Positions 6,235-57,382 of a DNA stretch of 64,000 bases are shown one piece after another. The notes under the pieces were generated by a model. The model had not been told where the DNA came from. It searched no databases and saw nothing but the letters and a program-made list of their open reading frames with translations. A program made the position numbers and the translations under genes. Origin of the DNA: Escherichia coli (GTDB lineage: Bacteria; Pseudomonadota; Gammaproteobacteria; Enterobacterales; Enterobacteriaceae). The DNA lies in assembly GCF_050920415.1 (NCBI RefSeq), contig NZ_CP169309.1; one strand, 5' to 3'. How positions within the stretch are numbered: position 1 is the first letter of the stretch; the number at the start of each line of letters is the position of its first letter.

Positions 6235-6630
6235 TCACATTTCATAGGTAATGACATAAGTCAGATCGGCAGAACTCCACAGGCCCGCATCATCGTCGCG
6301 CCGGTAGTCATAGCCACTGGCCACCATACTGGTGATCAAATCTGACAGTGCCGGGATATCGCTCATCACCGGATAAATCCGGGACTCCATCCACGCATCC
6401 AGCTCTGAATCCGGCACCTGAGCAGGCAGGAAAACTTCGATATGCAGTTCCGCCTGCCAGGTATCGCTGTCCAGCTCTTCGCCCGTGTATTCAGCGCCGG
6501 TGAGATAAACGGCAACTGCCGGAAAATCCGCCTCATCAAAAACAGCGGGGCGACCATCAAAAAACGTCGCCCCGGTGTCATGCTTCTCCAGTGCATCCAG
6601 TACGGCTGCACGGAGTTCAGTATGTTTCAT
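6235..6630 (-). CDS. U: tail terminator protein U (lambda gpU-like)
   Basis: Track ORF 131 aa [31 protein letters not shown]... Confidence 0.9.
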
Positions 6631-7216: not shown

Positions 7217-7570
7217 TCAGCGGCGACGGTTAACGGCAGGCGGTACGCCCCGCCCAAGCCAGAGATGACAGCTTCCGCCATCATCCGGCGAAATCCGGTC
7301 TATCCAGAAGTTTTCCTCACCGATGGTCAGCGTGTCGCCGCGCCGCAGCTGCCGCACATCATCAGTCCGGACAAACATGGACGGGCTGGAGCCTTCAACG
7401 CGCACGCCCGGTCCGGCATAGCTGATATTTTCAGGGTCATCAAAAACACCACGTATCACAGCACCGGACTGCTCACCGGATGTCATGGTGGCTGACGTTC
7501 CCATGTACCCGCGTATCGTTTCATCGGCGCGGGCAATGGCAGCATCGAACAGGTTATCGAAATCAGCCAC
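7217..7570 (-). CDS. FII: head-tail connector protein FII (lambda gpFII-like)
   Basis: Track ORF 117 aa MADFDNLFDAAIARADETIRGYMGTSATMTSGEQSG... Confidence 0.9.
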   Translation of the reverse strand: MADFDNLFDAAIARADETIRGYMGTSATMTSGEQSGAVIRGVFDDPENISYAGPGVRVEGSSPSMFVRTDDVRQLRRGDTLTIGEENFWIDRISPDDGGSCHLWLGRGVPPAVNRRR

Positions 7571-18998: not shown

Positions 18999-20096
18999 AT
19001 GAAAAAATTAACAGTGGCAATTTCTGCTGTAGCTGCATCAGTACTGATGGCGATGTCTGCTCAGGCAGCTGAAATTTATAATAAAGACAGTAACAAGCTG
19101 GATCTGTACGGGAAAGTTAATGCTAAGCACTACTTCTCCTCTAATGATGCAGATGATGGTGATACTACTTATGCCCGTCTTGGCTTCAAAGGTGAAACCC
19201 AAATCAACGATCAGCTGACTGGTTTCGGTCAGTGGGAATATGAATTCAAAGGCAACCGCGCTGAATCTCAAGGTTCCTCCAAAGACAAAACCCGTCTTGC
19301 ATTTGCAGGCCTGAAATTCGGTGACTACGGCTCAATCGATTACGGCCGTAACTACGGTGTAGCATACGACATCGGTGCGTGGACTGACGTTCTGCCAGAA
19401 TTCGGTGGCGATACCTGGACCCAAACAGATGTGTTCATGACTGGTCGTACCACTGGTGTTGCAACCTATCGTAACAACGACTTCTTTGGTCTGGTTGATG
19501 GTCTGAACTTTGCTGCTCAGTACCAAGGCAAAAACGATCGTAGCGATTTCGATAACTACACTGAAGGTAACGGTGATGGCTTCGGTTTCTCTGCTACCTA
19601 TGAATACGAAGGATTCGGTATCGGTGCAACTTATGCGAAATCTGATCGTACCGACACTCAAGTTAATGCAGGGAAAGTTCTTCCTGAAGTATTTGCTTCC
19701 GGTAAAAATGCAGAAGTTTGGGCCGCAGGTCTGAAATATGACGCTAACAACATTTACCTGGCCACTACCTATTCTGAAACCCAGAATATGACTGTATTTG
19801 CTGATCACTTCGTTGCTAATAAAGCTCAAAACTTCGAAGCTGTTGCACAATATCAGTTCGATTTCGGTCTGCGTCCGTCCGTTGCTTACCTGCAATCTAA
19901 AGGTAAGGATCTTGGAGTATGGGGCGATCAGGACTTAGTCAAATATGTTGATGTAGGTGCAACCTATTACTTCAACAAAAATATGTCTACTTTCGTTGAT
20001 TACAAAATCAACCTGCTTGACAAAAATGACTTCACTAAAGCACTCGGTGTAAGCACTGATGACATCGTTGCTGTAGGTCTGGTTTACCAGTTCTAA
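18999..20096 (+). CDS. nmpC: outer membrane porin (NmpC/Lc-type general porin), apparently intact
   Basis: Track ORF 365 aa [46 protein letters not shown]...VGLVYQF; signal peptide and C-terminal aromatic residue typical of OmpC-family porins; lies between Q and S on the opposite strand as in DLP12/PA-2. Confidence 0.9.
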
Positions 20097-20104
20097 TCTG
20101 ATTA

Positions 20105-20146
20105 CGAAAAAGATATGTTGCGGGAGGCTTTGCCTCCCCAACATAT
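20105..20146 (-). terminator. putative late terminator tR' (minus strand), also usable as convergent terminator for nmpC
   Basis: Palindrome ATATGTTGGGGAGGC-AAAG-CCTCCCGCAACATAT followed on the minus strand by CTTTTTCG; ~100 nt downstream of a promoter-like sequence after Q. Confidence 0.45.
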
Positions 20147-20233
20147 AAGTGGCTCCCTCAAGCCACTTCCTTTAGGAGCACAACCTTGCTTCTAACTATA
20201 TAAACCTTCTGTTATATATTACCCTTTATTTTT

Positions 20234-20259
20234 GGGGGCGTTGCAACGCCCCATTTTTA
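20234..20259 (+). terminator. putative rho-independent terminator on the plus strand downstream of nmpC
   Basis: GGGGCGTTGCAACGCCCC followed by ATTTTTAA. Confidence 0.5.
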
Positions 20260-20285
20260 ATAACTTTTAGTAAACAACTGGCATA

Positions 20286-20669
20286 TTAATTAGAGTTATT
20301 AACAACGATATCCATCTCTAACCGGATATCTAATGCCATTAACATCCCTTCAATTATACCCTCAGCCTTCTGTAACCTTTTCCCGATATAACCATCAGAG
20401 CAGCAATGCTTACCTGCCAGTGACATGAATGTCATACCGACTACATAATAATCTACTAATAAATCGTGCAAATCGCTGTTGTTCTTTTTCAGACGGGCCA
20501 TGCACCCGCAAATGATCATCGCGTCATCGTCACAACATTGCGGGCGAGATTTTACTTTTGAAGTAATTAATCCCTTAAAACCGGCGGCAATGGACGACCA
20601 GGTCACATCTTCATGATTATTAGCCGCCCACGCTCCCCAACGCTCAAGAACCATCTGAATATCACGCAT
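20286..20669 (-). CDS. Q: late-gene antiterminator Q (phage-82 / DLP12 QuuD type)
   Basis: Track ORF 20286-20684; contains [34 protein letters not shown]...[18 protein letters not shown]... (127 aa from this Met); Cys cluster consistent with a zinc-binding Q. Confidence 0.8.
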
Positions 20670-20751
20670 CAACTTACTCCACAAAAATCAGACCAGAACG
20701 CCAATTACAAGCAAAAATCAACAAAATAGTATTAGTTGATTGTTATCTCTG

Positions 20752-20892
20752 ACTTCATACTCCTGCTCCTGTCAGGGTTTTGGCGTAATTCTTCAGTATC
20801 CGGTAATCGGTCAAAACAGAACCAGGAAAACGATATAAGCGCAGGCGCACCCAGCGGCGGCGAAGACGCTCTGCCATATAAGACTCAAACAT
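20752..20892 (-). CDS. ylcG: small DUF3927-like protein (DLP12 YlcG-like)
   Basis: Manual minus-strand translation [45 protein letters not shown]; start overlaps the rusA stop; below track size cutoff. Confidence 0.5.
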
Positions 20893-21254
20893 CATTCATT
20901 CCCCATTTCGGTGATGGTCAGTTCCAGCCTCCCACCTTTGGTAACAGGCATCTTCACAACGCGGTAATCAACGACCTGAGCATCATCCAGCCAGAAACCT
21001 GCTTTGGTGAGTGCGTCAAAAGCGGCCTTTTGCAGATTATCCAGGTCACGGCGACGGCGATCCGGCATGTGGCACTCAATACGGATTTTCACTGGCATAG
21101 CCAGGCCGATATCCAGCATTGCGTTTTTAATGATTCGGGTGACGTTATCGCGGTATGCCTGCCCTTCTGCGCTGATGTGTGTGCGCCCGCGATTATGGCG
21201 GTAATAGCGGTTATTGCTCGGAGGCCAGGGTAGTGTGATGTGGTAAGTATTCAC
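20892..21254 (-). CDS. rusA: Holliday junction resolvase RusA
   Basis: Track ORF 20892-21317; 120 aa from the GTG at 21252-21254 ([37 protein letters not shown]...); start overlaps the ybcO stop. Confidence 0.85.
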
Positions 21255-21541
21255 GCCTTGATTACCCCCTCTTTCAGCCAGATAACCTGCGTTCTCGCCA
21301 TACCTTCCAGCGCGCATTCTTTTGCGTACTCAGCATCGACAAAATGCGTGCGGCGGTCGATTTCGTCGTGACAGGCAGAACAGGCAATGGTGGCAATAAG
21401 GTCTGGCGGTTTAATACCGGTGCCGCACAATCCAGCCAGCCGGATATGTGCCAGTACAGACGTTTCAGGGTTGCCATTACATACGCCAGTGATTCTTACC
21501 TGGCATTCCCGACCACGCGCTGCTTTTCTCAAATCAGCCAT
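21251..21541 (-). CDS. ybcO: DUF1364-family protein (DLP12 YbcO-like, Cys-rich putative nuclease)
   Basis: Track ORF 21251-21580; start chosen at [35 protein letters not shown]... Confidence 0.7.
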
Positions 21542-21704
21542 GATTCCTCCTTGCTGCCAGTCGCAACCATTTTTTATCAACCAGGCTAGCGGTATATCCG
21601 AGCAGTGTTGGTATTTCGGATGGCTTCAGCTCAGGCTTACGCTTACGACGATTTGGTACTCTGTAGATGTGTCCGTTCATGACACGAATAAGCGGTGTAG
21701 CCAT
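21534..21704 (-). CDS. ninE: NinE-like small protein
   Basis: Manual translation [56 protein letters not shown]; ATG overlaps the ybcN stop (TAATG); below track size cutoff. Confidence 0.6.
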   Translation of the reverse strand: MATPLIRVMNGHIYRVPNRRKRKPELKPSEIPTLLGYTASLVDKKWLRLAARRNHG

Positions 21705-22159
21705 TACGCCTCCTGCTTGTCGCGCAGCAGCTGGAACTCGCAGCTCTGCGGAATAGTCAGGTGGCAGCCAATATTCATCGCCCAGGCTTCAACCTTACAC
21801 AGGAAGACATACATCTCTCCGGTATCAAGATCGGAAGTATGGCGTAACGACTGGATAGTAGTGATTTCGCCGGTTACGACATCAACCAGGTCCTTGGTTT
21901 CATAACCGAGGTATGTGTGTTTGAGAGCATCTTTTACCCAAGCTGGAGTGGCGAACGTTTTACCCCTGCTGATGAGGTATTCACTGATTTCGCTGTACCA
22001 CATGTGGCTGAGTGCATTCTGGGAAAGACTGCGTTTCTCACGCCACGGTTTAAGCACCATGCGAAAGCATTTGCCTTCCTCCAGATAAGGCTGGATCTGC
22101 TGGCCGATAGCGGTGAAGTTACCACGATGCAATTTGATGCCGTCTTGTGGGAGGTTCAC
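21704..22159 (-). CDS. ybcN: NinB-position protein (DLP12 YbcN-like)
   Basis: Track ORF 151 aa, GTG start preceded by [47 protein letters not shown]... Confidence 0.75.
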
Positions 22160-22193
22160 GCTTCACCTCCGCAGAGGTCAAACGCTGGATGCA

Positions 22194-22278
22194 AAAAATC
22201 GCAGGTGCATCTCTGCATCTGTGAAGGGAGAAGAGAGTTTGGATTGTATGTGCGCATAAACGTCCCCGTTTAGCGCAG
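22194..22278. repeat. ~85-bp direct repeat, copy A (partner at 24128-24211, ~93% identical)
   Basis: AAAAATCGCAGGTGCATCTCTGCATCTGTGAAGGGAGAAGAGAGTTTGGATTGTATGTGCGCATAAACGTCCCCGTTTAGCGCA; contains imperfect hairpin GCGCATAAACG-TCCCC-GTTTAGCGC. Confidence 0.75.
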
Positions 22279-22353
22279 AAGTCACCGGAGTTGTTCAAGC
22301 TCCAATGGCATGATTATGGCTGGTTGATTATTGGAAATCAAATGTGCTGAAAA

Positions 22354-22863
22354 TTAGTCTGCCAAGTCTTCCTCAGTCGCAACTGGGTAATTCCAAATAT
22401 CAAAAAAAGCTATAGCCTCCTGCCATTTGCTCCATAAGTTATCAAGTACTTGTGTAGGTTCCGTACTTTTAAAAACAGAATCAGCCGCATCACCGTTATG
22501 AACTTCCTCGTACAGTTCCATTATTAGCAGATTAACAAAGTACTGTTTCAACATTAATGCCTGATTACCTTCTTTCTGCTGGCTATCCTGCTTGATGAGC
22601 TCCATCGCCCGTACTAGGCACCTGATGATATCCGCTGCATCATTAACGCTCCATTCAGATCCGCGCTTATCTTTAGCTGATGAATTGGCTCTCTCAGCGC
22701 AAGCCTTTAAAGACTCATAAAGGTAAACTCTATTTTGTAGCTGCAGCGCTTTTTTTGACGTGCACCAACTTGCAAGCGCCGACCCCGCTGCGGCTAATGT
22801 GCCAAACGCAGAAATGCCTGCTGCTATTGCACTTAAGTCGGCACTGTCAAAGTTCCACATCAT
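22354..22863 (-). CDS. hypothetical protein with one N-terminal hydrophobic helix; no family recognised
   Basis: Track ORF 169 aa MMWNFDSADLSAIAAGISAFGTLAAAGSALASWCTSKK...; AT-rich upstream region; lies inside the repeat-bracketed cassette. Confidence 0.6.
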   Translation of the reverse strand: MMWNFDSADLSAIAAGISAFGTLAAAGSALASWCTSKKALQLQNRVYLYESLKACAERANSSAKDKRGSEWSVNDAADIIRCLVRAMELIKQDSQQKEGNQALMLKQYFVNLLIMELYEEVHNGDAADSVFKSTEPTQVLDNLWSKWQEAIAFFDIWNYPVATEEDLAD

Positions 22864-23036
22864 CGTTACACCTTATATAAACACCCCTCAGTAATATCCA
22901 ATAAGGTATGTGAACAATCAATATAATTTATATCCGTATCGGCACATAGCGATTTTAATGCTACTGATAATGGTATCTTTTAGATTATATCGTCCAGTTC
23001 CAGTACCCGTATTTTATGAAATGGACTCGCACATTA

Positions 23037-23078
23037 CCAAAAAAAATGCCAGCACTTCCGTCATCGCAGAATGCTGGC
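23037..23078 (-). terminator. putative rho-independent terminator downstream of the Bro-N-like gene
   Basis: Minus strand: GCCAGCA...TGCTGGC stem followed by ATTTTTTTTGG. Confidence 0.45.
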
Positions 23079-23098
23079 AGTATTTCTAACTAGTGACT

Positions 23099-23707
23099 TT
23101 ATTGCAACAGATTCTGACGGAAATATGGTAACACACGACTCCACTTATCATCCTGCCACGGTTGGAATTTTACATGCGCCGTTTCTCTGGCAAGGATTTC
23201 TCGCGCCCTGTTGAGTATCCGAGGATATTCTTGTTCGATTGAAGTGAATCTACCTGCTTCGCGATGCTCTGCGACCTGAAGAAGGGGCGTAACGTTCTGG
23301 CAGGCGGTTAACATCGTATCACTTGCTCGCCATAACCAGGCGAGTGTGCAAAGTTCGTTATCAGTGAATTGTTTTGTGATTGGGGATTGTTGAACTTCTC
23401 GATCGAGAATATCCAGAACCCAGCGGCGGAATTCTTTGGCCACAGGAGTACGAGCAAACATGGCGATCAAATGGGCTCCGCGAAGGCTAAATACTCGAGA
23501 CTCCTGCATTCCACGAGGGGTGGTCACTTTGACCACCCTTGTCATCATATCTGTGAATTCATCTGAGTGCCGAGAGTAAATGCGCTGAACTGCTTTATCG
23601 TCCGCATATTCCAGTGCTAAACCAACTTCAGTGGCAGTAAGCCAAATTCTGTTATTGTGGCAAATCGGGGTAAACGTCGTTTTGTGGAATGCTAATTGAG
23701 TAGTCAT
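23099..23707 (-). CDS. Bro-N / antirepressor-like domain protein
   Basis: Track ORF 202 aa MTTQLAFHKTTFTPICHNNRIWLTATEVGLALEYADDKAVQRIYSRHSDEFTD...; N-terminal region resembles Bro-N/KilA-N phage regulatory domains (pattern recognition only). Confidence 0.55.
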   Translation of the reverse strand: MTTQLAFHKTTFTPICHNNRIWLTATEVGLALEYADDKAVQRIYSRHSDEFTDMMTRVVKVTTPRGMQESRVFSLRGAHLIAMFARTPVAKEFRRWVLDILDREVQQSPITKQFTDNELCTLAWLWRASDTMLTACQNVTPLLQVAEHREAGRFTSIEQEYPRILNRAREILARETAHVKFQPWQDDKWSRVLPYFRQNLLQ

Positions 23708-23970
23708 AGTATCACCTCATCAGGTTAACCATCACCACCAACGACGCCAATCGACTGGTGGTGAACTGTGTAAGGTTGGCGTAACCGGCTACTCAAACCC
23801 GGCGCTTCCGAAGAAGCCCTCACACAGCCCACCATAATTTGGGCATAGCCGTGCTTAGCGCACAAAAAAACCGCTTAACGCGGTATGCGTTGAGTAGTAT
23901 CCCGGGACGCCAATCCCGTGTGCCGATTTTGCGGCAACGCACAGAATATAGCGCCGGATAAATCATGTCG

Positions 23971-24060
23971 TCAACCCCAGTAAATGGACACCATGATGAT
24001 CACAGCCATAGCTGCTACAACAGTTACAACTACCTCAGGCCAAAACATAACGATTTCCAT
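23971..24060 (-). CDS. candidate 29-aa hydrophobic micro-protein
   Basis: Manual translation MEIVMFWPEVVVTVVAAMAVIIMVSIYWG*, preceded by AGGTGA about 5 nt upstream; single predicted TM helix; below track size cutoff. Confidence 0.3.
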   Translation of the reverse strand: MEIVMFWPEVVVTVVAAMAVIIMVSIYWG

Positions 24061-24127
24061 ATCACCTTTAGCCGCCAGACGAATAGAGACTCCCAATTCT
24101 GGCTGTCGAAGTAAAACACCGAATGTA

Positions 24128-24211
24128 AAAAATCGTAGGTGCATTTCTGCATCTGTGAATGGAGATGAGAGTTTGGATTGTGTGTGCGCATAAACGTCCC
24201 CGTTTAGCGCA
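24128..24211. repeat. ~85-bp direct repeat, copy B (partner at 22194-22278)
   Basis: AAAAATCGTAGGTGCATTTCTGCATCTGTGAATGGAGATGAGAGTTTGGATTGTGTGTGCGCATAAACGTCCCCGTTTAGCGCA; about 6 mismatches versus copy A. Confidence 0.75.
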
Positions 24212-24519
24212 ACCCCACCACCGGGTGTTCAGGCCGACAGTAACTATATTATTCCCTACTGATTTTTGAAAATCAAAGGTCTTTATACGTCACACGAGAG
24301 CAAATATTTCCGAAGAAGAAACCTTTCGCCTTGAAAGGATAAAGAGTTCATTTCATAAATTGAAATATTCAATAAGAATATTGCAAAAAATGAAATTATT
24401 TACTAGCGAGTCTATCTAACTGATAATTATGAAGATTGTAAGCGGTAGCAATCACCCGCATACACATTGAACAGGATTTAATACAAAACGTCTTAAATTG
24501 TCCGTAAGGAATAGCACGA

Positions 24520-26022
24520 ATGACTCAAACTCCTCTATTACTTGCAATCATATTTTTATTGGTTGTTCTTGTTCTTTATATAGCTGCAATCAAACGCATC
24601 AAAAAAATACAATTAGAATTAAGTGATAGCAATCAAAAAAATGAAGAATACAAATCTCGCTTTGCAGATTATTTTAATGTAGAAGAAGAATGTAAGAAGC
24701 TTATTGAGAAAACAGAGCAAGAATGCTCCATAATAAAAGAAGAATCCCTAAAAGTAAAAGAAAATGCCAATAATGAACTAACAAACACCATTGAAAAAAT
24801 GGATGGTATCAATAAACAAATCCAAGAGCTAAGAAGAACTTATAAAGAGAAGAAAGAAATATATGATAAACTAGTAAGGCAAATTTCTATTTATTCAGAA
24901 GATGTTGAGCTAGCCGAACTAGGATTTTACGAACCTCATTTTAATTTTGAAGATTCAGAGCAATTTAAAAACAAAATAAAATCCATCAGGGATGAACAGA
25001 AATTAATGCTGCGGGATAAAACCCACTCTGGCGCAGTATATTGTACAACCCAATGGACTGTTGAAGGCTCTCGAGCAGAGGGTAAAAAAATGACAGACAG
25101 AAATATCAGGCTAACTACTAGAGCATTTAATAATGAATGTGATGCTGCAATTAGCAATTGCACGTGGAAAAACATCACTAAAATGGAAGAACGCATCACA
25201 AAGGCATTTGAGGCCATAAATAAACTAAACGAGCAAAATCACATATATATAAACACTAAATACCTCAATAAAAAACTTGAGGAATTGTGGCTTACCCATG
25301 AATATCGTGAGCAAAAACAGAAAGAAAAAGAAGAACAGGCAGAAATAAGGGCACAAATGAGAGAGGAGGAGCGTGCACAACGAGAAATAGAAAAGGCCAT
25401 GCAAGACGCAGAGGCAGAAGAGCGCCGTTATAAAAAAGCAATTGAAGCTGCAAGAAAGGAAATGGAAAAAGTTACTGGTGACATGAAGCAGCGCCTCGAA
25501 AATCGCATTGCCGAACTAGAACAGAGTTTGTCGCAGGCTGAATCAAAGCATCAAAGAGCATTATCCATGGCACAACAAACCAAACAAGGTCATGTTTATA
25601 TTATTTCGAACATAGGTTCTTTTGGGGAGAATGTTTATAAAATAGGCATGACACGACGTCTTGATCCGCAAGACCGTGTAAATGAGCTCGGTGATGCATC
25701 TGTTCCTTTTATTTTTGATGTACATGCCATGATTTATTCGGAGGACGCTCCATCATTAGAAAAAAAACTACATGATGTCTTCGATAAAAAGAGAGTCAAT
25801 CTTGTAAATCGTAGAAAAGAGTTTTTCTATGTTACTCTGGATGAGATCAAAGAAGCTGTTAAAAAACACTCTGATTCAGAAATTGAATTTATTGAGACAG
25901 CAGTCGCAAAAGACTTTAATGAGTCATTGGCTATTCGTAATCATGAAAATAAAAAAAGTGACAACAGCAACTCATCAATTATACCTGAGCGAAAAACCCC
26001 AGAGTTTGCAGATGCAATTTAA
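24520..26022 (+). CDS. membrane-anchored coiled-coil protein with C-terminal GIY-YIG/T5orf172-like domain (DUF4041-like architecture); candidate defence moron
   Basis: Track ORF 500 aa: N-terminal TM helix (LLLAIIFLLVVLVLYIAAI), ~300 residues Lys/Glu-rich coiled coil, then GHVYIISNIGSFGENVYKIGMTRRLDPQDRVNELG...EKKLHDVF...RKEFFYV; RBS AAGGAA; strongly AT-rich; opposite strand to flanking phage genes. Confidence 0.8.
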   Translation: MTQTPLLLAIIFLLVVLVLYIAAIKRIKKIQLELSDSNQKNEEYKSRFADYFNVEEECKKLIEKTEQECSIIKEESLKVKENANNELTNTIEKMDGINKQIQELRRTYKEKKEIYDKLVRQISIYSEDVELAELGFYEPHFNFEDSEQFKNKIKSIRDEQKLMLRDKTHSGAVYCTTQWTVEGSRAEGKKMTDRNIRLTTRAFNNECDAAISNCTWKNITKMEERITKAFEAINKLNEQNHIYINTKYLNKKLEELWLTHEYREQKQKEKEEQAEIRAQMREEERAQREIEKAMQDAEAEERRYKKAIEAARKEMEKVTGDMKQRLENRIAELEQSLSQAESKHQRALSMAQQTKQGHVYIISNIGSFGENVYKIGMTRRLDPQDRVNELGDASVPFIFDVHAMIYSEDAPSLEKKLHDVFDKKRVNLVNRRKEFFYVTLDEIKEAVKKHSDSEIEFIETAVAKDFNESLAIRNHENKKSDNSNSSIIPERKTPEFADAI

Positions 26023-26270
26023 TTAATTTGTAGTAGCAATAAAGCAGGCATCGTTGAGAATATTTTGTCAGCGATGCTTACTTCTCTAACAAAAACGGTG
26101 ATTACCAACGAACTAACGGACTTCAGGTAATCATAAGACAAATGGAACGACTCTCCGGTGATTAGATCCCTGCAATAACAGTAATTTTCTACTAACTGAA
26201 AAATCTTTAACTGCCGCTCCTATTTCTAAGCTGACTGCTAGATTACATGGTGTGTTACCGATGAAAACCG

Positions 26271-26573
26271 TCACAGCAAGTTTAAGTTCATATCTCCATA
26301 CACTGCCAACACTCGTTTCATCGCGGCACTCTGGCGACACTCCTTGAAAATCAGATTCGTGCTCACCTTTCCTTCCCGTTCTTCCCTGGTAGCGAACCGG
26401 TAATACACCGTTCGCCAGACCTTACCATCAACGACCAAGATTCCTGCCCGTGCCATTTTAGCCGCAGCCTGATTTATACTGGTTACTGTTGCGCCTGTTA
26501 CCGCAGCAACGTCCTGCGCACAGAAGCTCTTATGCGTCCCCAGGTAATGAATAATTGCCTCTTTGCCCGTCAT
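26271..26573 (-). CDS. ren: Ren protein (lambda Ren-like)
   Basis: Track ORF 100 aa MTGKEAIIHYLGTHKSFCAQDVAAVTGATVTSINQAAAKMARAGILVVDGKVW... Confidence 0.85.
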   Translation of the reverse strand: MTGKEAIIHYLGTHKSFCAQDVAAVTGATVTSINQAAAKMARAGILVVDGKVWRTVYYRFATREEREGKVSTNLIFKECRQSAAMKRVLAVYGDMNLNLL

Positions 26574-27271
26574 ACAGTTGCTCCTTTCAGTCCGAACTTC
26601 GCTTTGATTTCTGCGATCTTCGCCAGAGCCTGTGCACGATTTAGAGGTCTACCGCCCATGACAGGAAGTTGTTTTACTGGTTCAGGTATCGCCTCACCAC
26701 GGTTAATTCGCGCGGTCATACAAGTCAGTTCATCGGCAGCCTTGCGCCGTAATTCCGCATCAGTAAGCGCATTGGCCCGCATGTTCTGATACAGGTTGGT
26801 AACCAGCCAGTAGTGCGCGTTTGATTTCCACGGATAAGACTCTGCATCTGGATACAGGCCACGTTTCCGGCAATACTCGTAAACCATATCAACCAGCTCG
26901 CTGGCGTTTGGCAGCCCGGCGGTAACGGATGCTTCTTCCCGGCACCAGGCAACAAACTGCCCGGGTGATGGCAGGAATGGTCGATTCTGCCGACGGGCTA
27001 CGCGCATTCCTGCGTCAACCTGTTCCATCGTGGTGATCCCGTTTTCCCGGAAAGCCAGAACCCACTGGCGGCGGATTTCGTTCAGTTCGTTCTGGTCCCG
27101 GTTAGCCAGGCTCGCCGGGAAAGTTGCCAGTAACTGGCTGAACACACCATTGATGATCTGCGCTACCTGTTGTACCTGCGGCTTTTCGTCGTACTGTTCC
27201 GGCATGTTGTTGGCGATCCGGCGCATCTGCTCACGGTCAAAGTTAACCATCTGTGCGGCGATGTTTTTCAT
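26570..27271 (-). CDS. P: replication protein P (DnaB helicase loader, lambda P-like)
   Basis: Track ORF 233 aa MKNIAAQMVNFDREQMRRIANNMPEQYDEKPQVQQVAQIINGVF... Confidence 0.9.
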   Translation of the reverse strand: MKNIAAQMVNFDREQMRRIANNMPEQYDEKPQVQQVAQIINGVFSQLLATFPASLANRDQNELNEIRRQWVLAFRENGITTMEQVDAGMRVARRQNRPFLPSPGQFVAWCREEASVTAGLPNASELVDMVYEYCRKRGLYPDAESYPWKSNAHYWLVTNLYQNMRANALTDAELRRKAADELTCMTARINRGEAIPEPVKQLPVMGGRPLNRAQALAKIAEIKAKFGLKGATV

Positions 27272-28287
27272 AAATCCACCCCGTAAATCCAGTCAGTGTT
27301 TGTCAGGTCGAGTTTTGATTTTCCGGCTATCACGCCAGCCTGTTGCTTGTTACGGTTGATTTCGAGTTGGGTCCACTTGTCGCGGAGTTTGGCCGGACTT
27401 AGCACGTTACCGGACCAGAAGTTGTCCTGGCATGCCCAGCGGAACAGCACGCACATGTCGCGGTGGTTACGGCCGTCACGTTCACGCATCAGGCGGATAT
27501 CGTTAGCCCACCCTGCAAAATTCGGTTTTCTGGCTGATGGCGCGATGGTCTTCACCATGTCAAACATCCACTCTGCGGCGGTCAGGTCTTCTGCTGTCCC
27601 CCACCTGCTGCCGCTCTGAATTGCAGCATCTGGTTTCTCCACAGGAAGATCGTTTTCTGGTTGGTCAGAGGATTCGCCAGAATTCTCGGACGAAAAAGGT
27701 TTTATATTGTCTTTTGTTAGTTTGTCTTTTGTGTTTACCTGATTCGGGTAAGTGCCTTTACCTGATTTGGGTAAACTTTTCTTACCTGATTCAGGTAAAT
27801 TTACCTCTTTCAGGTAAACTTTATTTTTCTTACCTGATTCGGGTAATGTTGACCATTCACTGACCACATTATTAATGCCGATATTCCGCCCGCTCTGAAT
27901 AAAAATCCCACGCTTTACCAGAACACTTTTTGCAGCAGAACACTTGTGCGGCAATATCCCGGTCAACTCGGAAAGTTGCTCGTTGCTCACCCAATCCAGT
28001 TTTTTATTAAAGCCATATGTTTTGCGCATGACAGCCAGGAAGACCAGAAGCTGGTGCTGTGTTAATCCGGCCAGCATCACAGCTTCCAGCAACTCATTTG
28101 CAATGCGCGTATAACCATCATCGAGATCTGCCACGCGCGGCTCCTTTTGTGCCGCATCCGGCACTGGAAAATTGAATATCTCAGCAGTGTTTGCCATAAT
28201 TCCTCCCGCAATGAGTGTGTTACGATTTGCACCTGAAAGTCGGTTCTGTTCCCGCAGACCGACTTTCGCCATTTCTGAACCTGTCAT
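27268..28287 (-). CDS. O: replication initiator O (lambdoid O-like; origin iterons inside the gene)
   Basis: Track ORF 339 aa (start uncertain; internal Met at MANTAEIFNF...); C-terminal part resembles the lambda O P-interaction domain; iterons at 27735-27846 lie within the coding sequence. Confidence 0.8.
   Translation of the reverse strand: MTGSEMAKVGLREQNRLSGANRNTLIAGGIMANTAEIFNFPVPDAAQKEPRVADLDDGYTRIANELLEAVMLAGLTQHQLLVFLAVMRKTYGFNKKLDWVSNEQLSELTGILPHKCSAAKSVLVKRGIFIQSGRNIGINNVVSEWSTLPESGKKNKVYLKEVNLPESGKKSLPKSGKGTYPNQVNTKDKLTKDNIKPFSSENSGESSDQPENDLPVEKPDAAIQSGSRWGTAEDLTAAEWMFDMVKTIAPSARKPNFAGWANDIRLMRERDGRNHRDMCVLFRWACQDNFWSGNVLSPAKLRDKWTQLEINRNKQQAGVIAGKSKLDLTNTDWIYGVDL
27698..27846. 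repeat. ori: replication origin: five palindromic iterons (TACCTGATTCGGGTA-like) plus adjacent AT-rich segment
   Basis: Copies at ~27736-27750, 27759-27773, 27783-27797, 27802-27816, 27831-27845; AT-rich stretch 27698-27734 on the downstream side relative to O. Confidence 0.65.
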
Positions 28288-34332: not shown

Positions 34333-34675
34333 GGCCTGTCAGTTTCTTAAGATATCCAGACCAACCGCCACCAACTGGATACGAACAGGCCGCCTACAGG
34401 CAACACGTAAAGATCCAACCAAGCCAAAATCTCCTTACCTCACAACACGGCAAGCCTGCATTGCGGCGCTTCAGTCTCCGCTGCATACTGTCCAGGTGAG
34501 CGCGGGTGATGGCATAACAGAGGAAAGAAAATGTCACTCTTCCGCAGAAATGAAATATGGTATGCCTCGTATTCGCTCCCGGGCGGGAAACGAATTAAGG
34601 AATCTCTTGGCACAAAGGACAAGCGGCAAGCTCAGGAGTTGCACGACAAGCGAAAAGCAGAACTCTGGCGAGTAG
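34304..34675 (+). CDS. xis: excisionase-like protein (AlpA/Xis-type HTH), overlapping int start
   Basis: Track ORF 34274-34675; [37 protein letters not shown]... has the HTH pattern of AlpA/Xis-family excisionases; the open frame runs ~145 nt into int. Confidence 0.5.
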
Positions 34676-35694
34676 AAAAGCTAGGGGATTTACCTGATGT
34701 CACTTTTGAAGAGGCCTGCCTAAGATGGCTTGAGGAAAAAGCTGATAAAAAATCTCTCGATTCAGATAAAAGCCGGATTGAGTTCTGGCTTGAACATTTT
34801 GAGGGTATAAGGCTTAAAGATATCTCGGAGGCAAAGATTTACTCTGCTGTAAGCAGAATGCATAACAGAAAGACGAAAGAAATATGGAAACAGAAAGTTC
34901 AGGCCGCCATCAGGAAAGGTAAAGAACTGCCTGTTTATGAACCAAAGCCAGTATCAACTCAGACAAAGGCAAAGCATCTTGCCATGATAAAGGCCATTCT
35001 CCGTGCTGCAGAACGCGACTGGAAGTGGCTGGAAAAAGCGCCTGTCATCAAGATACCAGCGGTCAGAAACAAGCGAGTCAGATGGCTGGAAAAGGAGGAA
35101 GCAAAACGCCTTATTGATGAGTGCCCCGAACCACTGAAATCTGTCGTCAAGTTTGCGCTGGCAACTGGTCTGAGAAAGTCGAACATCATAAATCTGGAAT
35201 GGCAACAAATCGACATGCAGCGACGAGTTGCCTGGGTGAATCCAGAAGAGAGCAAATCAAACCGCGCCATTGGTGTGGCGCTAAACGATACCGCCTGTAA
35301 AGTGTTGCGTGATCAAATAGGCAAGCATCACAAATGGGTGTTTGTACATACCAAGGCGGCTAAGCGAGCAGATGGAACATCAACGCCTGCGGTCAGGAAG
35401 ATGCGCATCGACAGCAAGACATCATGGCTATCAGCTTGTCGTCGTGCAGGAATTGAAGATTTCCGTTTCCATGACCTCAGACACACCTGGGCAAGCTGGC
35501 TGATTCAGTCAGGCGTCCCATTATCAGTGCTTCAGGAAATGGGCGGATGGGAGTCCATAGAAATGGTTCGTAGGTATGCTCACCTTGCGCCTAATCATTT
35601 GACAGAGCATGCGAGGAAAATAGACGACATTTTTGGTGATAATGTCCCAAATATGTCCCACTCTGGAATTATGGAGGATATAAAGAAGGCGTAA
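34531..35694 (+). CDS. int: tyrosine site-specific integrase
   Basis: Track ORF 387 aa [47 protein letters not shown]...[39 protein letters not shown]; catalytic R..HxxR..Y signature; ends 15 nt from the tRNA 3' end. Confidence 0.95.
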
Positions 35695-35730
35695 CTGATT
35701 GAATTGTAATGGCGCGCCCTGCAGGATTCG
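35695..35730. other. prophage-host junction (att site overlapping the 3' end of argU); exact core not determinable without the distal copy
   Basis: int stop at 35694 and tRNA 3' end (CCA) at 35710; the second att copy is off-window. Confidence 0.5.
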
Positions 35731-35786
35731 AACCTGCGGCCCACGACTTAGAAGGTCGTTGCTCTATCCAACTGAGCTAAGGGCGC
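35710..35786 (-). tRNA. argU: tRNA-Arg (anticodon UCU)
   Basis: Reverse complement reads GCGCCCTTAGCTCAGTTGGATAGAGCAACGACCTTCTAAGTCGTGGGCCGCAGGTTCGAATCCTGCAGGGCGCGCCA; D- and T-arm consensus, anticodon loop CUUCUAA, 3' CCA. Confidence 0.9.
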
Positions 35787-49007: not shown

Positions 49008-49205
49008 TGCCGGATGCAGCGTGAACACCTTATCCGACCTACTAATCCGGTACCCATTGTAGGCCTGATAAGACGCGTCAAGCGTCGCATCAGGCATGGT
49101 GCGCCGATTACCGGATGCGGCGTGAACGCCTTATCCGACTACCAATCCGGTACCCATTGTAGGCCTGATAAGACGCGTCAAGCGTCGCATCAGGCATGGT
49201 GCGCC
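49008..49205. repeat. REP/BIME element: two tandem ~95-bp units of paired REP palindromes
   Basis: GCCGGATGCAGCGTGAACACCTTATCCGACCTAC...TGTAGGCCTGATAAGACGCGTCAAGCGTCGCATCAGGCA repeated twice with few mismatches, between convergent purK and ybcF. Confidence 0.75.
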
Positions 49206-57298: not shown

Positions 57299-57340
57299 GT
57301 CATACCACACGCCTGATTATTTTTAGCTATGTTGGATTTT

Positions 57341-57367
57341 GCCACGGTTTATACCGTGGCTTTTTTT
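57341..57367 (+). terminator. putative rho-independent terminator after allE
   Basis: GCCACGGTTTATACCGTGGC followed by TTTTTTT. Confidence 0.6.
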
Positions 57368-57382
57368 GTAGTCAATTCAGGT

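Follow-up and report, generated by a model that had tools for sequence, protein, structure and literature searches.

This study concerns a 64,000-nucleotide (nt) stretch of Escherichia coli DNA from contig NZ_CP169309.1 (the window, in what follows) and, within it, ORF169, a reading frame of 169 codons on the minus strand of a resident prophage. ORF169 is a genuine gene under strong purifying selection, best explained as a functional accessory gene carried by temperate phages of enterobacteria. It belongs to PHROG 1779, a family that is already catalogued but uncharacterised, and it is a well-delimited addition to a class that is familiar, the accessory or moron genes of prophages. ORF169 is predicted to be a bitopic inner-membrane protein with ~10 residues in the periplasm and a helical bundle of ~130 residues in the cytoplasm, and the description best supported at this time would be that of a membrane-tethered cytoplasmic binding module encoded in a neighbourhood of conflict genes. 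From its position, we infer a role in exclusion or defence, with expression at least partly from a promoter of its own, and we offer this role only tentatively. As matters stand, ORF169 joins many other prophage accessory genes that are uncharacterised; the value of the present analysis is that the gene, its family, its predicted topology, the boundaries of its modules, and a candidate control element are now cleanly defined. The features of the gene itself are as follows.

22354..22863, minus strand: ORF169 coding sequence, 169 amino acids (aa) plus stop, PHROG 1779 member, annotated as WP_000990010.1, "hypothetical protein"
22869..22874, minus strand: Shine-Dalgarno sequence AAGGTG, 5 nt 5' of the first ATG (from the sequence)
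22765..22836, minus strand: residues ~10-33, predicted transmembrane anchor, Ala/Gly/Ser-rich (from hydropathy and flank charges, 23 homologues)
22381..22764, minus strand: residues ~34-161, predicted cytoplasmic all-alpha domain of 5-6 helices
22357..22380, minus strand: residues 162-169 (ATEEDLAD), conserved acidic C-terminal tail (from alignments A2 and A3)

The gene and its family

A sequence-only reading of the window had proposed a 169-aa frame at this place, and the frame is confirmed: a Shine-Dalgarno sequence is present, the reading frame is kept, and selection is purifying. The start is ATGATG; in alleles L037 and L040, ATA replaces the first ATG, so the second ATG must serve as the start there. 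The frame is intact in essentially all full-length copies retrieved, the exception being L043 (6001-6510, corresponding to cluster P0002), the sole clearly damaged copy, which has a frameshift in the anchor-coding part. Between lineages, the proportion of synonymous differences (pS) is 0.65-0.88, that is, near saturation, the proportion of nonsynonymous differences (pN) is 0.14-0.26, and the ratio dN/dS is 0.09-0.16 where dS is estimable. Could ORF169 still be a chance or decaying frame without function? The annotation stops at "hypothetical protein" and the family is small, both of which would suit such a reading. However, it is opposed by a dN/dS of ~0.1 with saturated dS, by conserved motifs and length, by the spread of 41 clusters (90% identity) across several enterobacterial genera, and by the confident structured core of the AlphaFold2 (AF2) model. 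Cluster spread, intact copies, and dN/dS refute it in practice, and we give it practically no credence.

ORF169 matches the PHROG 1779 profile from end to end (E=1.7e-102; residues 1-169 on positions 1-169 of 169) with no difference to set it apart: this is ORF169's own family. The same profile is matched by all 10 distant homologues tested, with E values from 1e-20 to 1e-77. The PHROG matches of ORF169 and its homologues are solely to families without an assigned function, and because PHROG 1779 carries no functional annotation, membership explains nothing about mechanism. A single-sequence search with ORF169 recovered 14 clusters at 90% identity, and a profile search of 5.8 billion clusters recovered the 41 mentioned above, with a Pfam domain in none of them (the precomputed Pfam field is "-" for 41/41). 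An exhaustive phmmer search of 1.84 billion representatives (50% identity) gave 22 matches, all to the same small enterobacterial family. Where matches name an organism, the hosts are E. coli, Citrobacter, Enterobacter, Hafnia, Pantoea, Scandinavium, and Dryocola, all enterobacteria, and among 50,697 isolated phages only 2 have a PHROG 1779 member.

The sequence-only reading recognised no motif in the soluble part of the protein, and searches of Pfam, NCBIfam, PADLOC, and PDB sequences agree. Pfam gives no match for ORF169 even at E<=10, no NCBIfam model matches it, and PADLOC-DB 2.0 assigns it 0 families; among 10 homologues, PADLOC gives stray matches in 3 alone (E 0.002-0.04, 11-16 bits), and the family profile finds nothing at E<0.1 among PDB sequences (best E=0.13). 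Foldseek, which that reading had named as a check, returns family members alone below E=0.01 from AFDB50 and nothing below E=0.1 from BFVD; none of the structural neighbours of ORF169 is informative. Three of its Foldseek relatives in the AlphaFold database (from Citrobacter and Pantoea), all clear homologues, carry the UniProt name DUF4760 (PF15956), a family of ~150-190 aa proteins and in this respect similar to ORF169. The DUF4760 hidden Markov model has no match in ORF169 at E<=10 and matches 0 of 23 family members at E<=0.1, and DUF4760 itself has no assigned function and one incidental mention in the literature. Literature searches on the WP_000990010.1 accession, the PhiR26 phage name, and DUF4760 returned nothing functional.

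Predicted anchor, fold, and acidic tail

What kind of protein does this family encode? The N-terminal helix quoted in the sequence-only reading (LSAIAAGISAFGTLAAAGSALASW) is present and is the sole hydrophobic stretch of ORF169, with its peak at residues 12-31. The best 19-residue Kyte-Doolittle (KD) mean of this allele, 1.59, is marginal; in 22 homologues, the segment always lies at the same N-terminal place with KD values of 1.5-2.5, and most are clearly hydrophobic (1.8-2.5). The flanks of the helix carry charges of +0/-2 on the N-side and +3/-0 on the C-side in ORF169, and across the family there are 0-2 lysines or arginines (K/R) in the N-flank and 2-5 in the 15 residues after the helix, a bias found in 23/23. 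This K/R bias, together with the single hydrophobic segment, predicts an uncleaved anchor with the N terminus outside and the C terminus inside. Thus, the single-pass membrane protein of the earlier description is supported by one segment and a family-wide positive-inside bias. A signal peptide or lipoprotein signal was also considered and dropped, given that there is no positive n-region, that a tryptophan occupies position -1 before the cysteine, and that the cysteine is not conserved.

The AF2 model, built from 23 homologues (mean pLDDT 77.6, pTM 0.67, core 76-94), is all alpha: a long helix spans residues 7-63, including the anchor (the anchor part has a low pLDDT of 50-62), and is followed by a bundle of five or six helices. 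Small residues occupy one face of the anchor (S18, A24, A26, A29, and S32); all are invariant in the close-homologue alignment (A2), and in the 23-sequence alignment (A3), A29 and S32 are invariant and S18, A24, and A26 are conserved at >=90%. The sequence of the N-terminal segment varies across the family, with hydrophobic character and position kept. Other motifs conserved in A2 and A3 are LKACAERAN, W71, NDAA(D/N)I, and LKxYF. The tail, with the consensus [AV][TS][DE]xDLxD, lies at the very C terminus and appears in the model as a poorly ordered, low-confidence short helix; such a tail would fit a docking peptide.

Is it possible that the protein is instead soluble and uses its Ala-rich N-terminal segment as an oligomerisation helix, or that this segment is a toxic, pore-forming helix? 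For this allele, the KD of 1.59 is borderline and the Hessa scale sums to a free energy of +2.7 kcal/mol; moreover, AF2 draws the segment as continuous with the following soluble helix, and the small-residue pattern would also suit helix-helix packing in solution. Yet most homologues reach KD values of 1.8-2.5 with a free energy of ~0 or below, the positive-inside asymmetry occurs in all 23 sequences, and the sequence drifts while hydrophobicity and position stay. We therefore regard these alternatives to an anchor as improbable.

Transcription of ORF169 and the upstream antirepressor locus

The sequence-only reading also proposed that ORF169 is an independent transcription unit. The following features bear on that proposal.

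22880..22929, minus strand: conserved upstream element with AAT(T), promoter-like boxes, and a dyad (alignment A5, 7 lineages)
22916-22921, minus strand: -35-like TTGATT
22893-22898, minus strand: -10-like GATATT, at a 17-nt spacer from the -35-like box
22903-22910 and 22880-22887, minus strand: 8-bp dyad arms, with the -10 in the loop
22864..23098, minus strand: spacer upstream of ORF169, 235 bp, 36.6% GC (window GC 50.4%)
23039..23079, minus strand: intrinsic terminator of the isrK-orf45-antirepressor operon, 13-bp stem plus U8 (from folding)
22283..22307, minus strand: hairpin 3' of ORF169 with loop C-UUGAACA-A, a 3' boundary marker and ylcH/nin leader element

The proposal holds in part: the upstream terminator, the conserved element, and the terminators of relatives argue for it, and the weak promoter and the lack of a strong terminator in this window argue against it. 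We consider ORF169 as a semi-autonomous, moron-like unit to be plausible but unproven. The hairpin and T-run noted upstream are real (stem 23047-23079, U8 23039-23046), with a folding energy of -22.6 kcal/mol and z = -3.0, and 0/200 shuffles fold as well. In Gifsy-1, the isrK promoter gives rise to a transcript of ~900 nt (isrK-orf45-anrP-isrJ) whose end lies past the antirepressor gene (PMC4825925). Given the likeness to this transcript, the hairpin and T-run are best read as the terminator of the isrK-antirepressor operon, with ORF169 outside that operon, and the claimed separation of ORF169 from the Bro-N antirepressor gene is borne out by the strong intrinsic terminator between them. The AT-rich spacer of 235 bp, to which the same reading gave weight, is present but is not conserved as such: the spacers of other lineages are 45-110 nt long, and conservation outside the E. 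coli lineage is limited to the last 60-75 nt.

Within this conserved part lies an element of ~60 nt, common to the window and six other lineages, in which AAT, TTG, and GATATTA are invariant and spacing is fixed. The proteins of these six lineages are 63-76% identical to ORF169, and synonymous sites are saturated. The element shows the pattern that would be expected of a sigma70 promoter, with a predicted start near 22886. Two other alleles, L006 and L055, have a perfect TATAAT with a CCCCTC...GAGGGG hairpin, then a T-run and the start codon, immediately after it. In the window, the match agrees with the consensus at 8/12 positions, which is weak, with a G at the first -10 position; the promoter scan of the window did not report TTGATT-17-GATATT, and chance alone would give 0.64 occurrences of the bare pattern TTG-17-GATATT in the window. 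Pairing in the dyad reaches 87.5%, versus 34-56% in slid controls, and its two compensatory pairs and several G-U pairs speak for an RNA hairpin rather than a DNA palindrome; the support is modest, since 37-46 of 500 shuffles reach the observed values.

Where would a transcript from this element end? Canonical terminators lie within ~90 nt after the stop codon (in four of the five, within ~45 nt) in the five homologues found on the PL side of their phages (L054, L058, L065, L067, and L071). As an observation in passing, the region 3' of the L071 homologue (6528-6600) has three tandem 11-nt units (CATTCGTGAAA) and then a strong terminator (CCGCCAcucuGGCGG plus T8). In this window, ORF169 and ybcN...quuD have no strong terminator between them, which fits poorly with a promoter that works in lysogens; the strongest candidate between ORF169 and the nin-Q operon is a weak hairpin plus T-run inside ylcH (22200-22217).

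A second candidate for a terminator of ORF169's own, the covarying hairpin just 3' of the gene, was dropped because it is also present in the K-12 DLP12 prophage, which lacks ORF169; it belongs to the nin leader. Copies occur on the minus strand of the window at 22283-22307 and 24217-24241, in L003, L004, L006, and L055, and in L070 (K-12 DLP12) at 7326-7336. They have an invariant 9-nt loop, C-YUGAACA-M, on an 8-bp stem whose sequence is completely different between copies; 95.8% of cells are paired, 6/8 pairs show compensatory changes, and 0/500 shuffles reach these values. The hairpin sits just upstream of ylcH/ninB, where the terminator tR2 lies in lambda, but lacks a U-run, and Rfam gives no match to it at E<=1. 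In the nin leader, it may serve as a boxB-like, processing, or antitermination element.

The locus upstream of ORF169 consists of the following parts.

23099-23707, read on the minus strand: antirepressor gene (Bro-N + P22AR-C)
23754-23839, minus strand: C4 antisense RNA (Rfam, 74.8 bits)
23864-23936, minus strand: isrK Hfq-binding RNA (Rfam, 58.7 bits)
23899-23951, minus strand: c4 a1b1 target (39.6 bits, below the 46.7-bit gathering score and reported by the permissive E-value scan only)

This C4/isrK/antirepressor locus matches the arrangement of P1 immI and of the Gifsy-1 isrK-orf45-anrP-isrJ locus. The Gifsy-1 locus sits between Q and the lysis genes, whereas the one described here sits between ren and the nin region. 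The idea that ORF169 is the counterpart of a gene of the Gifsy-1 isrK locus was dropped, as that locus has no counterpart of it. The repeat said to bracket the cassette is real: it is a 104-nt direct repeat (22174-22277 and 24108-24211) with 89% identity between its copies, and both the ylcH start and a weak hairpin with a T-run fall within it. Copy B is a truncated "pre-nin" leader upstream of the inserted isrK-antirepressor-ORF169 segment, a recombination footprint at a conserved linker.

Prophage neighbourhood and proposed role

The prophage of the window is of the DLP12/lambda type and lies beside a tRNA-Arg(TCT) gene (35710-35786, minus strand), the probable attachment site, and an integrase gene (34531-35694). 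The gene order on the minus strand is O, P, ren, (SNIPE on the opposite strand), antirepressor, ORF169, ylcH, ybcN, ninE, ybcO, rusA, ylcG, and quuD. The neighbours that delimit or share the interval of ORF169 are as follows.

26271-26573, read on the minus strand: ren
24520-26022, plus strand: SNIPE/PD-lambda-1, 500 aa, DUF4041/GIY-YIG (PADLOC E=2e-198), antisense to the early operon
22156-22257, read on the minus strand: ylcH

Within the interval from ren to the ylcH/ybcN (nin) operon, ORF169 takes the distal end, downstream of both SNIPE and the isrK/C4-RNA-controlled antirepressor operon and separable from each. In the DLP12 prophage of K-12 (MG1655, L070), the interval from ren to ylcH holds emrE, ylcJ, ybcK, ybcL, and ybcM, and no ORF169; such different cargo in K-12 DLP12 and in this prophage makes the interval a cargo hotspot. 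The moron-type position claimed for ORF169 is thus upheld: the interval around it is part of a lambdoid prophage and variable in its cargo. The mosaic left boundaries within E. coli fall into three classes, at 24211, at 23409 (inside the antirepressor gene), and at 22940, the last in L043, whose homology to the window begins 77 nt 5' of the ORF169 ATG. Over 20000-27500, identity is 99-100% to many E. coli chromosomes and likewise to PhiR26_1 (PV340555), a cultivable phage in which ORF169 is 100% identical. The ORF169 allele occurs in ~179 of 5,426 complete E. coli genomes, and the flanking sequence occurs in 2,882. Carriers include O104:H4 HUSEC2011 and enteroaggregative E. coli (EAEC) 55989. 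The decaying prophage of HUSEC2011 keeps ORF169 intact, with its antirepressor, rusA, and terminase genes reduced to pseudogenes; the ren-ylcH interval there also holds remnants of emrE and of a zinc-ribbon gene.

Morons, in the sense of Hendrix and Juhala, have lambdoid examples in bor, lom, and HK97 gp15. ORF169 resembles them in its patchy presence among similar phages (the 179 genomes with the gene versus 2,882 with its flanks, and other cargo in K-12 DLP12), in a deviating composition (GC content 44.5%, and 42.9% at third codon positions, versus 50.9% in ybcN, 50.5% in ren, 54.3% in P, and ~51% in the nin flanks), in its candidate promoter, and in the downstream terminators of its distant members. 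It differs in that the promoter is weak and a candidate only, no strong terminator follows it here, and it is always co-directional with the flanking early genes.

To place the family more widely, we read 14 independent gene contexts, this window included. All 14 lie in an early, non-structural accessory region of a temperate phage or remnant. On the PR side, between replication genes and ninB/Q, are this window, L003, L004, L006, L055, L063, and L072, together with PhiR5_1 (L060), in which the homologue lies between ren and ninB. On the PL side, between recombination genes and xis/int, are L054, L058, L065, L067, and L071. In L061, too, the homologue sits in an early accessory region; an Ead/Ea22 gene precedes it, and a Phd/Fic pair and a DUF968 gene follow. 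The upstream neighbour is different every time, so there is no conserved partner gene. Defence or cargo neighbours are frequent: SNIPE in the window, Phd/Fic in L061, RT-SLATT in L054, and, in L072, Abi_2 on the opposite strand and a cloacin/immunity pair near the homologue. Dam, other DNA methylases, and DndB are found near the homologues of L058, L063, L065, and L071.

How might such a protein act? We posit that ORF169 would be expressed from its own weak sigma70-type promoter (TTGATT-17-GATATT inside the dyad), with the dyad forming a hairpin in read-through transcripts only. The protein would then act as a binding module tethered to the inner membrane on its cytoplasmic face; it could oligomerise or dock via the small-residue face of the transmembrane segment and capture a partner through the helical domain and the acidic tail. 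We speculate that a superinfecting phage would thereby be hindered as its genome enters or shortly thereafter, in the manner of an exclusion or abortive factor. This exclusion/defence role is favoured by the mobility of the gene, by its defence-rich neighbours, by its own cis-elements, and by its retention in the decaying HUSEC2011 prophage. In a more specific form, ORF169 and PHROG 1779 would be a single-gene, membrane-anchored anti-phage factor of unseen fold, with an acidic docking tail, in a defence-rich hotspot shared with SNIPE and an antirepressor switch; we hold this form to be a little more doubtful than the general one.

Two known kinds of membrane protein invite comparison. P22 SieA/SieB, lambda SieB, T4 Imm, and HK97 gp15 are superinfection-exclusion membrane proteins. 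Like ORF169, Sie-type proteins are small, prophage-encoded inner-membrane proteins in accessory or moron positions; unlike them, ORF169 shows no sequence or profile similarity to this type (no Pfam match) and possesses, in its acidic tail and its large, structured cytoplasmic domain, features that are not described for them. SNIPE, a nuclease bound to the membrane, cuts phage DNA during injection, and its N-out anchor and cytoplasmic body have been shown by PhoA/LacZ-alpha fusions (PMC13190303). ORF169 shares its predicted topology and its prophage hotspot but lies on the opposite strand, has no nuclease or DUF4041 domain, and is found without SNIPE in most contexts. A relationship between ORF169 and SNIPE was dropped, there being no sequence similarity between the two.

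Several points weigh against the exclusion/defence role. ORF169 has no homology to a known exclusion, abortive-infection, or defence family in Pfam or PADLOC, and the neighbourhood evidence is anecdotal. The depositors of PhiR26_1 labelled PD-lambda-1 and left ORF169 "hypothetical." All 14 contexts are co-directional with the flanking phage early genes, usually with short gaps, so read-through expression is equally possible, and the L054 homologue overlaps its upstream gene, which fits ordinary delayed-early expression. To these points we add the marginal hydrophobicity of this allele's anchor, the weakness of the promoter match and its expected chance frequency, its absence from the promoter scan, and the lack of a strong terminator before ybcN...quuD. 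The exclusion or abortive-infection function guessed at in the sequence-only reading is neither refuted nor supported beyond position.

Could ORF169 instead be a delayed-early lytic protein, transcribed from the PR operon (the PL operon in relatives) under antitermination and serving host takeover or counter-defence from the membrane rather than protection of the lysogen? Its co-directional place within PR- or PL-side early regions in 14/14 contexts is what such a role would predict. Upstream gaps are usually 45-110 nt, and one copy (L054) overlaps the preceding gene; hairpins and terminators of the kind found upstream are usual in nin regions that antiterminated polymerase reads; the neighbours often include DNA methylases and other early genes of the anti-restriction type; and no strong terminator separates ORF169 from the nin-Q operon here. 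However, the conserved promoter-like element and the gene-proximal terminators of distant members suggest some autonomy, the upstream gene (Abi_2) is divergent and separated by a 515-nt gap in L072-L074, ORF169 stays intact in degraded prophages, and there is no similarity to known anti-defence or takeover proteins. We judge a delayed-early role in takeover or counter-defence to be possible, and about equal in likelihood to exclusion or defence.

A further alternative is that ORF169 tethers the phage's own early functions to the membrane, whether by anchoring replication or repair or by modulating the antirepressor switch, and is not a conflict gene at all. E. coli copies of ORF169 always follow a P22AR-C-type antirepressor gene or its remnant, the acidic tail resembles a docking peptide, and a gene for a DNA polymerase III theta homologue (HolE/Hot-like) adjoins the homologue in two independent arrangements: downstream in L006 (6567-6824), L007, and L008, and upstream and overlapping in L054 (6756-7004). 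In contrast, the antirepressor link is confined to one recent E. coli lineage (>95% identical) and is lacking in L003, L004, L006, L063, and L072, a terminator lies between the antirepressor gene and ORF169, and theta adjacency amounts to two independent events only. A tether of this kind thus seems unlikely, and functional coupling of ORF169 to the antirepressor was dropped as lineage-specific and interrupted by the terminator. The probabilities that we attach to these readings are not exhaustive, and the remainder falls to roles outside those listed.

If ORF169 is an exclusion or defence factor, it would be a compact, structurally orphan addition to the prophage-encoded arsenal, and the ren-to-nin interval of lambdoid prophages would be a defence hotspot in which it stands beside SNIPE. 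Experiments are straightforward, as PhiR26_1, which can be cultivated, has ORF169, and so do pathogenic lineages (O104:H4 HUSEC2011 and EAEC 55989).

Two observations on the remainder of the window may be added. The interval from the Q antiterminator gene to the lysis cassette holds an intact OmpC/NmpC-like porin gene on the opposite strand (18999-20096, plus strand); its K-12 DLP12 counterpart, nmpC, is interrupted by IS5. In the flanking chromosome, Rfam matches to naRNA4 and STnc480 are found at 49062-49140 and 57305-57371, both on the minus strand.

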